From the IMG/VR virus record IMGVR_UViG_3300018417_002450: a DNA stretch of 64,000 nt, one strand, 5' to 3'. This document shows positions 935 to 62,197 of this stretch, one piece after another. How positions within the stretch are numbered: position 1 is the stretch's first letter; every line of letters starts with the position of its first letter. The position numbers were made by a program, and so were the translations under genes. Source of the stretch: an uncultured virus (IMG/VR IMGVR_UViG_3300018417_002450). Taxonomy: Duplodnaviria; Heunggongvirae; Uroviricota; Caudoviricetes. The notes beneath the pieces were generated by a model. The model ran no database searches. It was not told the origin of the DNA and saw nothing but the letters and a program-made list of their open reading frames with translations.

Positions 935-1354
935 TTACTTTAGCCAACCAATTTTTTTACCATCAGCAATACGTTTTTCAGCAATTGCTTGTGAGCCTGG
1001 ATAACGCCATGCCCACGTTACAATCAACGCAAAGGTAATAAACATATAGAGTGTTGCCTTTTCGTTACCTGTACCAAAATACATAAATGCCAAAGATGTC
1101 GACATAACTGCAACCATTAACCATTTGGCTGCGGTTGGATATACGCGATACTTTGACCAGTTTTTAACAAATGGACCGAACCGTGGATGATTCATAATCC
1201 AATTATGCAGTCTGTCACTTGATTTAGCGAAACAAAATGTTGCGCCGAGAATTGGTGTTGACCAAGGTAGACCAGGTAGTAACACACCGAGATATGCTAC
1301 ACCTACCAAAATAATTCCTAGGCAAAACCAAAATGCCTTTTTTACTTTACTCAT
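935..1354 (-). CDS. YbaN/DUF454-family inner membrane protein
   Basis: LGVLLPGLPWSTP...CFAKSSDRLHNWIMNHPRFGPFV matches the YbaN pattern. Confidence 0.8.
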   Translation of the reverse strand: MSKVKKAFWFCLGIILVGVAYLGVLLPGLPWSTPILGATFCFAKSSDRLHNWIMNHPRFGPFVKNWSKYRVYPTAAKWLMVAVMSTSLAFMYFGTGNEKATLYMFITFALIVTWAWRYPGSQAIAEKRIADGKKIGWLK

Positions 1355-1503
1355 GTTTTTTTTCCATTCTTTAAATAGGTACCGTCAAGATTGTAGCGTT
1401 GGTAGTTATACCATGCCCACGATAACGAGTACACAAAAGGATAGCCTTTTTCTCTTAATTGTTTGAACCAATTCCAGTAATGACTATTTAGAGTCGGCTT
1501 CAT
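1351..1503 (-). CDS. small hypothetical protein, 50 aa (not in ORF track)
   Basis: MKPTLNSHYWNWFKQLREKGYPFVYSLSWAWYNYQRYNLDGTYLKNGKKT; stop overlaps the next start (ATGA). Confidence 0.5.
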   Translation of the reverse strand: MKPTLNSHYWNWFKQLREKGYPFVYSLSWAWYNYQRYNLDGTYLKNGKKT

Positions 1504-30634: not shown

Positions 30635-31411
30635 TTAGAAGCTGAATGAAACAGATGCAGTAGGTGTCAATTCTTCGTTGTCTAGGTTATATGTAGCACC
30701 AGCTTCTAGATCAATACCTAGAAGTGTGTACTCATAAGAACCACCTACGTTTTGAAGCATTTCATCTTGATCGCCATTTACGAATACCGTAGCACCGAAC
30801 GCGCCAGCATCTACTTCAAATCCAATATCTTCTGATTCTGACTCATAAGTAACAGCAGCACCAAGTCCAATATTGTCGTTCAACAGATAATCATTGCGGG
30901 CACCAACCGCAAACTCTTCTTTGTCTAAGTTGTATGAACCTGCGGCCTGCAGATTAATAAGACCAACGTTCATTTCGTACATACCACCGACTGTTTCGAT
31001 TTCTGTTGCATCTGCTTCGATATCTTTCCAGCTAACGCCCATTTGTGCGCCAAGGGCTTTTACTTGGATAGATTCTTTCATGGCTGGATCAGCCATTGTT
31101 GAACCGTCTTCTGTGTCGATCCAAACATTTCCTTGATCTCCAAATGAGATCATTGCGTCCCCGTTAACTACAGTACCAACTTGCCACTCATCAAGAGTAA
31201 CATCACCGTCTGTGTTTACGTCTAAATCAATAGCAGCGAATGCAGGTACTGATGTACCCATAGACGCGATTCCTAGATCAAAAGATGTAGTAGCACCCCA
31301 TTTGTCGTCTGCGTTTTCTGCGATTTCAGTTGTAATTTTTCCGCCCATATCTGCTGCTGATACTGAACCAGCGAAAAAAACAAGTGCTGTAGTAGTTAAA
31401 AGTTTATTCAT
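30635..31411 (-). CDS. outer-membrane porin-like beta-barrel protein
   Basis: Signal peptide MNKLLTTTALVFFAGSVSA, amphipathic strands, C-terminal ASVSFSF; RBS before 31411. Confidence 0.75.
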   Translation of the reverse strand: MNKLLTTTALVFFAGSVSAADMGGKITTEIAENADDKWGATTSFDLGIASMGTSVPAFAAIDLDVNTDGDVTLDEWQVGTVVNGDAMISFGDQGNVWIDTEDGSTMADPAMKESIQVKALGAQMGVSWKDIEADATEIETVGGMYEMNVGLINLQAAGSYNLDKEEFAVGARNDYLLNDNIGLGAAVTYESESEDIGFEVDAGAFGATVFVNGDQDEMLQNVGGSYEYTLLGIDLEAGATYNLDNEELTPTASVSFSF

Positions 31412-31443
31412 CTTTTGTCCTTTCTTATTAATTTTTAAATGAA

Positions 31444-31762
31444 TGTGCCACTTTTCTGTTGCTAGGTAAGTGGCCAACCCCCTGTGTTATGCAGCTAGTG
31501 CGTAACCAGATGGTGCAAAATTATCGTTTGCATTTGTAGTTTTTGGCTGAATAACGTAGGCCAACACGGTGAACTCCACTCAACTATTCCGTTCGTCGAT
31601 CCTAATTCGCCCCCATCATAAATGCACTAACTTCGACCACCCATACGGGCCATCTATGTTCTGCAAAACTTCCTGTTGCAGCAGGACATAATGCATTTAT
31701 GGTGGAGGCGTCGGGAATCGCACCCGAGTCCGATCCGTTTTTATCTTGTTTCAACGTCCACA
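31444..31762 (-). ncRNA. ssrA: circularly permuted two-piece tmRNA, tag ANDNFAPSGYALAA
   Basis: Acceptor piece ends CGCCTCCACCA at 31700; coding piece starts GGGGGCGAATTAGGATCGAC at 31614; G3-U70 pair; tag at 31531-31487; outer ends approximate. Confidence 0.93.
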
Positions 31763-31767
31763 TTCTA

Positions 31768-31808
31768 TATATACATCAAAAGGGGCTGAATGTCAACCCC
31801 TTTTTTTA
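31768..31808 (-). promoter_or_regulatory. tmRNA promoter overlapping the pstS terminator hairpin
   Basis: AAAAGGGG-TTGACATTCAG-CCCCTTTT; TTGACA-N17-TATATA. Confidence 0.65.
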
Positions 31809-51116: not shown

Positions 51117-51128
51117 ATATTATAGAGG

Positions 51129-51410
51129 ATGATAATGAAAATAAATGATATCGTAACTGTACTCAGTTCCCTTGGTACAGAATATGTAGGTAAATTTAAA
51201 TCAATGGATACGAATGGCATTATGCTCGAAAATCCAAAATTGATTTCAATGTCTGAAAAAGGAATGGGATTCGCAGGCGGCATTGCTATGACAGGAAACC
51301 CAGATCCAAAGCAGGTCCTCATTAATATTAATCAAATTGTGTTTGTGACTGAAACAAACGAAGCCGTTATAAAGGCTTACCACCAAGCAACTTCAGGATT
51401 GGTAGTATAA
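51129..51410 (+). CDS. small beta-barrel protein (possibly Sm-like)
   Basis: IVTVLSSLGTEYVGK...MLENPK...AYHQATSGLVV. Confidence 0.6.
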   Translation: MIMKINDIVTVLSSLGTEYVGKFKSMDTNGIMLENPKLISMSEKGMGFAGGIAMTGNPDPKQVLININQIVFVTETNEAVIKAYHQATSGLVV

Positions 51411-51416
51411 CGAATA

Positions 51417-60352: not shown

Positions 60353-60445
60353 TTTCTAAGCCATTGATTTGTAAGGAAACGTTTTTGTTGACATTTCCTT
60401 CAAATCTGTGGTATAATATACATATATTCAAATGGAGATGTATGT

Positions 60446-60865
60446 ATGAATATGGTAGAAGTCAAAGGTGGTCCTGCTAAAGAACGGGAAATCGTTGAGC
60501 AAACCGTGTACTGGTGTATTAAGAAATTAATGCCAAGAGTTCGCACTTTAGATATTGAAGTCAAATTGACAAAGTGTGACGCATATGGCTATTGCTTAAT
60601 GACTGACAATCATAAAACATTTGAGTTAGAAATTCGTAAAGGAATGAACTTATACGATTTAATTAGTACTGTTTGCCACGAAATGGTTCATGTTAAGCAA
60701 TACTATCGTAAAGAAATGGATGATGATAGCAATCGTTGGAAGTCTAAGCAATTAGGTGATATGAATTATGTGGATCGTCCTTGGGAAAAAGAAGCATTTC
60801 GTATGGAAGAAAAATTGGCTGTTGAATGCTTCAAAAATATTGCAATAAATTTTGCAAAAAAGTGA
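60446..60865 (+). CDS. zincin-like metallopeptidase (HExxH)
   Basis: TVCHEMVHVKQ...PWEKEA; promoter TTGACA 60388 / TATAAT 60412. Confidence 0.72.
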   Translation: MNMVEVKGGPAKEREIVEQTVYWCIKKLMPRVRTLDIEVKLTKCDAYGYCLMTDNHKTFELEIRKGMNLYDLISTVCHEMVHVKQYYRKEMDDDSNRWKSKQLGDMNYVDRPWEKEAFRMEEKLAVECFKNIAINFAKK

Positions 60866-60884
60866 AAAAAAGTGAAAAAAAGGG

Positions 60885-60912
60885 TTGACATTTCGTAGAA
60901 AAGGTATATATT
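60885..60912 (+). promoter_or_regulatory. strong sigma70-type promoter upstream of the ncRNA
   Basis: A tracts-GGG-TTGACA-N16-TATATT. Confidence 0.7.
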
Positions 60913-60919
60913 AATAATA

Positions 60920-61270
60920 TAAGGAATGAGGGAATAGGCCACGACGCTATCACCTTCGGGTAAAAAAGCATGACGGTAACGAATCTTATTCCTTTTATCT
61001 GGTGAATATACCGCCCGTGAAATACCGGTGACGTGAAACCCAGATAGTCTGTAGCCTGGCGCAGACGTTAAACTTCGCCCAGGTAGCAATTCAAAGTTTT
61101 CACTCGACGGAGTGAGATTGTGGTGACTGAATAATCCCTTACAAACGGGGATAAGGTAATATCGAAGGATCTTAGCGGATCGCCTTAGCGGGTGCAGGTA
61201 GGTACGGGCCGAGTCGGACAGGTAGTTTGTCAGTGGCGCTGTTGAAGGAAAACCTAATCCTTCCCACACA
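60920..61270 (+). ncRNA. candidate large structured ncRNA, domain 1
   Basis: No credible ORF, raised GC, many stems and two possible pseudoknots. Confidence 0.65.
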
Positions 61271-61310
61271 TTTATTATAAATAGTGGTATGAACACTAAA
61301 GAGGAATAAA

Positions 61311-61580
61311 ATGCCAGTTACAGCAAATACAGATCTAACCGCGTTAACCGTTGCTCAAATTAATGAATTACTAGACGACGCAGGATCTGAAATTATAGTT
61401 GATGGTGCTACCTATATTGGTAGAAATGCTTCTGATGAATATCAGTGGGAAGTAACTTATGACTCTCCACAAGCAAATGCATATGTCACGAATCATGCTT
61501 TTGTTGATGTTCATTTAGATGGCGAACCATTTATAGCATTAAATGATTTGGTAGAAGAAGACGATATTTTTGCTGAATAA
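61311..61580 (+). CDS. acidic hypothetical protein
   Basis: TATAAATA at 61276-61283, GAGG RBS. Confidence 0.7.
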   Translation: MPVTANTDLTALTVAQINELLDDAGSEIIVDGATYIGRNASDEYQWEVTYDSPQANAYVTNHAFVDVHLDGEPFIALNDLVEEDDIFAE

Positions 61581-61583
61581 GAA

Positions 61584-61856
61584 TTCTCTGAGGCAGCGGC
61601 GACAATTATAAGAGCGCCAGTCTAAAACTCAGAGCAGACGATGTGACTTAGGTCGTTATATCATTTGTCTGATACGCGGTAACGACCTATGCCTGAATTG
61701 CCCGTCGGTTCAGGAAGAAATCTAAATACGTGCTCATTGCACACGAGACGTATAGGGCGGGCCATATTTGAGATAGGCAAATCCCAAGGCAACCACGCCG
61801 CCTATCAATCGGCAGAGTAAGACTCGGATTAACAATGGGTGTCACTCAGACGAGAA
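61584..61856 (+). ncRNA. candidate structured ncRNA, domain 2
   Basis: Stems CTCTGAG/CTCAGAG, TAGGTCGTTA/TAACGACCTA, CCTGAATTG/CGGTTCAGG, TACGT/ACGTA, GATAGGC/GCCTATC. Confidence 0.6.
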
Positions 61857-61887
61857 AGGGAGAGCTTCGGCTCTCCCTTTTTTATTT
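61855..61887 (+). terminator. intrinsic terminator
   Basis: AAAGGGAGAGC-TTCG-GCTCTCCCTTTTTT. Confidence 0.85.
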
Positions 61888-62197
61888 ACTTACGAATAGC
61901 GTCAGCACCAAAGAAGGCTGCAACTAAAGCTGAAATAGCAACAAAATATGTTGGAGCAATATCACCAACAATAGCTGCTGCAGTATCTAAACCAAAATAT
62001 GATGTTAAGACAATTGCAAATGGATAGAGTAGCATGCCAAATAAAGCAAACCATGTCATTCCACGCATCGCATCCCGCTGTGCGTCTTTATCTTCTAATT
62101 CTTTTCTTTTAAATTCAAGATACATTTCGCGCTCAACGTCGTCTACAACGCCATCGCCATTTGTATCTGCTGGATGATAACTTTTATCTTCAGCCAT
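61886..62197 (-). CDS. 2-TM membrane protein with EF-hand-like loop (holin-like?)
   Basis: DTNGDGVVDDVE; two hydrophobic helices. Confidence 0.7.
   Translation of the reverse strand: MAEDKSYHPADTNGDGVVDDVEREMYLEFKRKELEDKDAQRDAMRGMTWFALFGMLLYPFAIVLTSYFGLDTAAAIVGDIAPTYFVAISALVAAFFGADAIRK

Follow-up and report, generated by a model that had tools for sequence, protein, structure and literature searches.

A divergent manA-like RNA among shuffled candidate RNA modules around a small gene of an uncultured T4-like marine phage

The locus described here occupies positions 60885-61887 of a 64,000-nucleotide (nt) stretch of DNA from an uncultured member of the Caudoviricetes (IMG/VR record IMGVR_UViG_3300018417_002450), and this whole stretch is referred to as the window. 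The locus is probably a co-transcribed mosaic, in which a small-gene cassette carries independent structured-RNA modules in its leader and in its trailer. One of these modules, at 61099-61274, is, judging from its sequence, a divergent member of the manA family (RF01745), or a subclade of it, with a score below the curated cut-off of Rfam, and the alignment of its relatives shows selection for an RNA fold. An earlier note on this DNA had read the locus as rich in structured non-coding RNA and framed by a promoter and a terminator, which our analysis supports (both signals are real), and had proposed one new large non-coding RNA interrupted by a gene, or two new RNAs, in a first block upstream and a second block downstream of an open reading frame (ORF) of 89 amino acids (aa). 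The parts of the unit are the following.

60885..60912, plus strand: sigma-70-type early promoter TTGACA-16-TATATT, 11 of 12 consensus positions, predicted start near 60919
60921..60994, plus strand: A1, 5'-terminal hairpin AAGGAAUGAGG / CUUAUUCCUU with an inner ACC-UUCG-GGU hairpin (minimum-energy fold)
60995..61047, plus strand: A2, 49-nt hairpin with near-invariant interior UGAAUAUACCGCCCGUGAAAUACCGGUGACGUGAAA, at 11 viral loci in 9 distinct flanking contexts
61048..61099, plus strand: A3/A4, hairpin GUCUG-UAGCCUGGCG-CAGAC followed by hairpin AAACUU/AAGUUU with loop CGCCCAGG (read from the sequence)
61099..61274, plus strand: manA-like RNA with P1 hairpin, closing helix UGUGG/CCACA, four-way core and two UUAGCG-loop hairpins (RF01745 match, covariation)
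61297..61580, plus strand: Shine-Dalgarno sequence AGAGGA, 8 nt before the ATG, and the 89-aa ORF (61311-61580) for an acidic small protein
61581..61772, plus strand: D1-D3, GC-rich 3' trailer (GC 0.47-0.49) with predicted hairpins, marginal folding of the whole trailer
61773..61850, plus strand: D3', conserved element of ~78 nt before the terminator, with stem UAGGC/GCCUA, a possible AUCCCA/UGGGU pseudoknot and hairpin AAUC..GAUU
61852..61883, plus strand: intrinsic terminator with a 14-bp stem, UUCG loop and U-run, facing the convergent gene for a 103-aa protein

At its curated thresholds Rfam returned nothing in the region of the two blocks. In a permissive Rfam scan, RF01745 matched 61100-61273 with 51.4 bits (E 6.7e-12) over its full length (model positions 1-192/192), a score under the gathering cut-off of 55.2 bits. 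Full-length matches (1-192) were also obtained in three of the five relatives' records searched (49.3, 40.6 and 39 bits), none of them at or above 55.2 bits. The novelty claimed for the locus is thereby refuted for half of block 1, which is divergent manA, and for that part only; A1 and A2 are uncatalogued in Rfam. Alignment to the Rfam consensus shows that the manA core (GUGACUGAAUAA ... UAAGGU), the P1 hairpin, the closing helix and the multi-stem junction are all present. A clade model (R1) built from five relatives scores the window copy at 186.6 bits. A clade-specific pattern scan gave 31 viral loci and, with model R1, 33 matches of which 20 are distinct; in these 20 the core columns GUGACUGAAUAA and UAAGGU, P1 and the closing helix are invariant or nearly so. 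The clade is marked by two hairpins with invariant UUAGCG loops, which stand in place of the variable insert of the Rfam model, and inspection of the clade alignment by eye found no conserved partner for these loops.

Covariation carries the case for an RNA fold. Compensatory changes were found in 22 of the 34 pairs across the 20 distinct sequences and 99.1% of the cells pair, against 35-53% when the partners were slid as a control; the alignment was fitted to its own model, which favours the structure. Four stems that the earlier note had read in the first block (TCACTC/GAGTGA, ATCCC/GGGAT, GAAGGA/TCCTTC and TGTGG/CCACA) proved to be manA helices, with 97.8-100% of the cells paired. The first three covary and TGTGG/CCACA is invariable, hence conserved without covariation; a fifth stem, GACAGG/TTTGTC, belongs to the Rfam manA structure and lies outside our own model. 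The loop match ACCTA/TAGGT, noticed at the same time, corresponds to the doubtful pseudoknot drawn by Weinberg et al. (PMC2864571). In contigs from RNA libraries that derive from a ~97% identical strain, the substitutions 61104 T>C and 61111 A>G occur jointly and compensate each other in P1.

Most loci of the clade lie beside tRNA genes. At 23 of the 31 viral loci (12 of the 18 distinct sequences) a transfer RNA (tRNA) gene lies on the same strand at most 12 nt away, and the usual gaps are 11-12 nt 3' of an upstream tRNA and 0-5 nt 5' of a downstream tRNA. The next feature 3' of the manA-like RNA was judged by eye over 130 nt in 19 representatives, namely the window, L004 and 17 of the 18 groups (the group of L214, which is cut, was omitted; L numbers denote loci of related viruses). 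This feature was a tRNA in five cases, an ORF in six, a terminator in four and other non-coding sequence in four, and in the six ORF cases an ATG with its Shine-Dalgarno sequence follows at a distance of no more than about 60 nt. The window copy has no tRNA beside it. Still, bases 61088-61099 match the tRNA-to-manA spacer of L040, so that the spacer of ~12 nt which follows tRNA-Gly in L040 is retained in the window. These positions show that the manA-like RNA is mobile among tRNA arrays, ORF leaders and terminator-proximal sites, and we infer that it behaves as a free-standing gene. Adjacency to tRNAs goes unmentioned in the consulted text of three manA papers, and the word 'tRNA' occurs 0 times in the available text of Ren et al. 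2026 (10.64898/2026.07.01.735769).

The same counts bear on the idea of a cis-regulatory leader, in which the manA-like element, perhaps together with A1-A4, would be a riboswitch or sensor for translation of the ORF or for stability of the messenger RNA (mRNA). manA was proposed as a riboswitch candidate in the 5' untranslated regions (5' UTRs) of T4-like cyanophages, according to the accessible part of PMC2864571, and its Rfam type is Cis-reg. The window copy ends 37 nt 5' of the ATG, which is the classical cis-regulatory site for manA, and the six ORF-preceding representatives occupy a like position. Moreover, in L131/L132 a fold of ~170 nt, with A2 as one arm, extends as far as the ribosome-binding site of a MazG-like gene. 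However, copies followed by tRNAs (5/19) or terminators (4/19), and the abutting of tRNAs in most of the loci, mean that a switch for a downstream gene is insufficient, whereas a stand-alone RNA covers all four classes. The ORF homolog in L113 does without a leader, and neither a terminator nor an anti-Shine-Dalgarno platform was found in 61274-61311 by prediction and by eye; no ligand is known. It seems unlikely, therefore, that the locus is a cis-regulatory leader of this kind.

Comparison of the locus with its relatives showed that the modules can be separated and that related phages carry them in shuffled order. Besides A1, A2 and D3', the related islands contain further modules, named M, N, X and Z, in the following arrangements.

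L039, about 420 nt: promoter, M, A2, N, X, Z, terminator, without ORF or tRNA
L122: N, M, A2, X, Z (X by eye, undetected by nhmmer)
L127: promoter, A1, A2, M, tRNA-like stretch, two tRNAs, Z
L125: as L127 up to one tRNA
L040 and L182: M, tRNA-Gly, manA-like RNA; in L040 then tRNA-Thr
L131/L132: A2 as arm of the ~170-nt fold 5' of the MazG-like gene
L106: small ORFs, then D3' and terminator

Further rearrangements were seen in contigs from RNA libraries. The ~97% identical strain has 132 extra letters that separate A1 from A2 and start M-like, and in another phage A1 is joined to X-like sequence. The positions of module M in two loci are given here.

L039 3596-3716 and L040 3978-4094, minus strand: module M, an RNA of ~115 nt that is not in Rfam; also in L122, L125, L130, L142 and L182

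Module M folds with a closing stem of 9 bp and two small hairpins; it also has a conserved strand, AAAAAUG..UAAAGAGAU, and on its 3' side an H-type pseudoknot. Compensatory changes occur in 12 of its 27 pairs, one of them in the pseudoknot, and 90.5% of the cells pair against 35-40% when slid. On this alignment module M is a genuine structured RNA. Kissing between the loops of N and M was considered and rejected, since the M loop is changed in L142 and N is unchanged; M's own downstream partner has changed instead.

The shuffling bears on the proposal of the earlier note that one large RNA is interrupted by a gene, taken here as one large ornate RNA of the GOLLD/ROOL type whose halves (60919-61310 and 61581-61850) would form a joint fold that holds the ORF in a loop. 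A single promoter and a single terminator serve the whole unit, both halves are GC-rich, and large phage RNAs near tRNAs, GOLLD and ROOL, are known. Yet relatives have the modules separately and differently ordered, and the two blocks show no excess complementarity: the half-to-half duplex energy is -124.8 where shuffled sequences average -126.3, and 108 of the 200 did equally well. Rfam at E up to 10 gave no GOLLD, ROOL or other large-RNA match. Nor is the ORF an interruption when homologs are compared, since the L113 cassette has the ORF without either half and L039 is a related island without the ORF. This proposal is largely refuted and we give it hardly any weight.

A different alternative is that the modules apart from manA are recombination debris, either hitch-hiking remnants or DNA-level shuffling linkers of the PeSL kind, without an RNA function of their own. 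It agrees with several observations: A2 is invariant rather than covarying, close strains differ by insertion or deletion of a whole module, each relative has a different island content, the window holds 12 copies of the promoter motif, folding energies are unremarkable, and the available parts of PMC2839356 and PMC4122927 provide a precedent in the PeSL promoter-terminator cassettes of T4-type phages. M and the manA-like RNA nevertheless covary clearly, the 49-nt A2 interior is identical across 9 unrelated flanks, which argues for selection, and the modules are GC-rich hairpins that have no PeSL promoter or terminator features. We consider it improbable that debris explains the modules, and the mosaic of independent RNA modules remains our preferred reading.

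The evidence for the leader modules differs from piece to piece. A1 has homologs of 91-94% identity in L125, L127, L129 and L156, with the same -10 box at equal distance, and from the -10 box to A2 the identity with L156/L125 is 94%. For the 5'-terminal hairpin the earlier note had paired GGAATAGG with CTTATTCC, which is probably a mis-pairing: the minimum-energy fold and the L125 homolog favour AAGGAATGAGG with the same 3' strand. The differences among A1 homologs are one-sided and likewise favour AAGGAAUGAGG as the 5' strand over GGAATAGG; the A1 structure is thus a predicted one, taken from folding models. The A2 interior is identical at all 11 viral loci and in 14 of the 49 metagenome hits to an 18-mer; the other 35 hits were rejected as chance matches in unrelated GC-rich DNA. 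Its outer stem, ATCTGG/CCAGAT, was rightly seen in the earlier reading, and A-U to U-A swaps between contexts keep its pairing. A looser pattern in which the inner hairpin was freed returned the same 10 contigs only and adds nothing; the A2 family is therefore narrow and its covariation is limited to the outer stem.

Stems GTCTG/CAGAC and AAACTT/AAGTTT of A3/A4, and the match of CCTGG/CCAGG between their loops, are legible in the sequence. The loop-loop match extends to GCCUGGCG with CGCCCAGG, eight pairs with one bulge. The sole relative of A3/A4 is the near-identical strain L136. In topology and in a loop UAGCCUG it resembles the 3' pseudoknot of module M. That A3/A4 is the 3' part of M is unproven, and this candidate was set aside: with filters off and E up to 10, the M covariance model (R2) did not match this stretch, and nhmmer gave no match either. 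A1, A2 and A3/A4 had no Rfam match in the permissive scan of the window. An Rfam E-value scan of 10 loci with A1, A2, M, N, X and Z gave nine tRNAs and two weak matches over tRNAs, and a scan of 20 loci at gathering threshold gave transfer-messenger RNA (tmRNA) and tRNAs only.

Three stretches in related loci touch on these modules. Between the manA-like RNA and tRNA-Pro of several arrays, in L198 (603-697, plus strand), L206 and L216, there is a conserved non-coding stretch of ~95 nt, which may be a module. The ~170-nt fold mentioned above is a predicted three-way fold closed by CAUACGUC/GGCGUAUG with A2 as one arm (L131 1101-1273, minus strand; L132 1146-1318, plus strand; L123 546-718, minus strand). 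In L131/L132 its end at the ribosome-binding site gives it a riboswitch-like look; in this MazG-leader unit with A2, 1 of 55 pairs was compensatory among four sequences, a variation too small to judge. Lastly, a tRNA-like stretch with a GGTTCGATTCC T-arm and no ARAGORN call is located between module M and the first tRNA in L125 (about 1360-1455, plus strand) and L127 (about 945-1060, minus strand).

The small gene is also found without the RNAs around it. L113 has the 139-aa gene that also precedes the window locus, a promoter directly before the ribosome-binding site, an ORF homolog (47% identity over 77 aa, E 5e-17, tblastn), a short trailer, a terminator and the 103-aa gene, and it has no RNA modules. 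We take this arrangement, a promoter-ORF-terminator cassette, as the base state. Weaker homologs were found elsewhere in the loci L039 (E 2e-5) and L106 (E 8e-6). A pattern search for relatives of the 89-aa ORF had returned 14 hits at first, but confirmed none of them, and the ORF has no Pfam or PHROG match. With its good Shine-Dalgarno sequence and its homolog in L113, the ORF that the earlier note had recognised is a real small gene.

Downstream of the ORF the evidence is divided. The UUCG terminator described in the earlier note is present and strong, and the last ~80 nt of the second block before it are conserved in relatives; apart from these two parts, the "five or more stems" of that note are unsupported. 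For 61581-61772 the only relative found by blastn and nhmmer in all collected loci was L136, an 18-mer from the hairpin 61692-61714 had 0 viral hits, and short ORFs in this stretch had no protein family match. Besides its marginal folding, a GC content of 0.47-0.49 is all that hints at a structured RNA here. D3' occurs in L106 (= L119), L120 and L121 at the same place, with an unrelated ORF 5' and a terminator 3'. Its 3-bp inner hairpin varies with pairing kept (GGC/GCC, AGC/GUU and GAC/GUU, by eye).

From promoter to terminator the transcription unit measures ~965 nt. The strong promoter claimed from the sequence holds up, and its motif (GTTGACA-N15-18-TATAWT) occurs 12 times in the window, where 0.01 copies would be expected. 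Immediately 5' of the -35 box (60856-60884) is a direct repeat, AAAAAGTGAAAAAAAGTGAAAAAAAGGG, and the ~97% identical strain is without 10 of these bases. Both blocks have a GC of 0.43-0.49, higher than the 0.32-0.35 of the upstream sequence, and there is no plus-strand ORF of at least 30 aa within 60866-61310, both as described before; the Rfam scans also agree that the locus contains neither RNase P nor tmRNA nor an intron core. An antisense ORF of 176 aa (60766-61296, minus strand) spans the promoter, the end of the upstream gene, A1-A4 and the manA-like RNA. It matched no Pfam or PHROG family and, because of this and of its overlap with the promoter and the upstream-gene end, it is probably spurious, an artefact of conserved RNA sequence.

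All ten stems that had been listed for the first block can be read in the sequence, but the folding energy of the block is not beyond chance: for 60919-61310 (392 nt) z was -0.96 and 19 of 100 shuffles were equally good. The first 186 nt (60915-61100) gave z -1.88 (8/200 shuffles equally good) and the 3' block without the terminator (61581-61850) z -1.96 (7/200). Including the terminator, the 3' block reached z -3.97, a strength owed to the terminator. Since folding energy is barely beyond chance, the case for RNA structure rests on the relatives, and it is unequal from piece to piece. In two salt-marsh metatranscriptome runs, 60937-61452 and 61487-61867 are covered by contigs identical to the window. 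They suggest weakly that the locus is transcribed, as DNA carry-over is possible. The RNA runs X15 and X16 cover everything and may include DNA; in X17 and X18 no contig lies over 60400-60847, a gap that does not count as evidence.

We propose the following course of events for the mosaic. RNA modules would have been recombined into the leader and trailer of an ordinary promoter/ORF/terminator cassette, and host RNA polymerase would transcribe the unit early. The transcript would contain, in order, A1, A2, A3/A4, the manA-type RNA, the ORF, the GC-rich trailer ending in D3' and the terminator. The manA-like RNA would work as a free-standing folded RNA rather than switching the ORF. The enzymes that trim tRNAs would set it free in relatives; in the window it would simply be co-transcribed with the ORF, in line with other operons of these phages, where tRNAs and RNAs of this kind stand together with ORFs. 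From its likeness to manA RNAs it may self-assemble via loop-loop contacts. The shuffling of the island would fit the promoter-terminator cassette mechanism of T4-type hyperplastic regions.

Several points weigh against this proposal. Firstly, the window copy and the other ORF-preceding representatives lie where a cis-regulatory manA would be expected, and the Rfam score is under the curated cut-off. Secondly, the clade pattern required both UUAGCG loops, so that the sample is biased and the counts are valid for one subclade. Thirdly, A1, A2 and D3' show little or no covariation, which makes an RNA function of each only a candidate, and the invariance of A2 is equally compatible with recent exchange or a DNA-level role. 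For A3/A4 and D1-D3 no independent relatives were found, and both fold with energies that lie within ~2 standard deviations of shuffles. Lastly, no processing site, transcript end or oligomer has been observed.

A bolder possibility, which we regard as a long shot, is that the island is a tool-kit of architectural RNAs: the tRNA-array-borne manA cage clade with partners A1, A2, M, N, X, Z and D3' would be made early and would assemble, alone or together, into RNA-only particles or scaffolds. A2, with three GUGAA pentads as possible T-loops, could dock (e.g. on a tRNA elbow) and plug into such scaffolds.

The source phage is, by its gene content, an uncultured T4-like marine myovirus. The window encodes the T4-type replication genes gp43, UvsX, a gp41-type helicase, gp46/47, topoisomerase II and NrdAB. 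The best cultured match of the gp43 polymerase, among 2,672 matching GenBank phage records, has 44% identity and belongs to T4-like cyanophages; the phage is thus no close relative of the cyanophages. Searches of GenBank phages gave no DNA match to the whole locus, to block 1 or to block 2. The nearest record, G001, has only the promoter stretch in common with the locus. The locus sits in a hypervariable island bounded by two conserved genes.

60446..60865, plus strand: upstream neighbour, 139-aa gene (phrog_10499), left island border; 36 related viral loci
61886..62197, minus strand: downstream convergent neighbour, 103-aa membrane-type protein, right island border; widely conserved

A relative of the 103-aa gene is encoded in 596 of 600 pattern matches, the best 80 of which were retained. 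Over the window, Rfam at gathering threshold found tmRNA and tRNAs (n=2) and nothing else. The tmRNA (31396-31800, minus strand) is a permuted two-piece molecule with the tag peptide ANDNFAPSGYALAA; it matches the Rfam alphaproteobacterial tmRNA model, which may be a clue to the host. Permuted tmRNA is also present in L040-L042 and L081 near 2200-2900 and adjoins the 103-aa gene in several relatives. The 300 nt at 51117-51416 (plus strand), which separate tRNA-Arg(UCU) from tRNA-Leu(UAA), apparently hold a small ORF and no RNA module (by eye).

Among known systems, T4 RNAC and RNAD are encoded in the tRNA region of that phage and are matured with the tRNAs. They are also called species 1 and 2 and are described, in the accessible part of PMC9697503, as small phage RNAs of unknown function. 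They offer the best analogy for maturation of the relatives' copies, being likened by setting and not by sequence or structure, whereas the window copy has no flanking tRNAs. GOLLD and ROOL are phage-borne, tRNA-associated and self-assembling RNAs, each a single conserved unit of ~600-800 nt. The window locus differs from them as a string of separable modules of ~50-175 nt without a match to these families in Rfam. PeSL elements (PMC2839356 and PMC4122927, in the parts available) are alike in having small, exchangeable units that sit between conserved genes and are flanked by an early promoter in repeated copies, and this likeness accounts for the shuffling of the island; they are, however, regulatory DNA motifs and leave covarying folds such as M and manA unexplained.

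The closest comparison is manA itself, which had the status of a riboswitch candidate for 15 years (Weinberg et al. 2010, PMC2864571). According to Ren et al. 2026 (10.64898/2026.07.01.735769), manA RNAs form pentamer-based assemblies, decamers and 60-mer cages, in vitro via kissing loops. The window copy shares with manA the full-length model match, the core, a T4-like marine phage as carrier and its position in a 5' UTR; its clade differs in scoring below the cut-off, in the two UUAGCG hairpins and in lying mostly flush with tRNA genes. The window itself adds one atypical member, a copy within an mRNA leader. In the locus and its relatives, the manA-like RNA travels with conserved folded RNAs that are absent from catalogues, and the context of the clade argues against a purely cis-regulatory role of manA. 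Divergent manA RNAs of non-cyanophage T4-like marine phages would thereby gain a natural setting, where the cage preprint had no biology attached.

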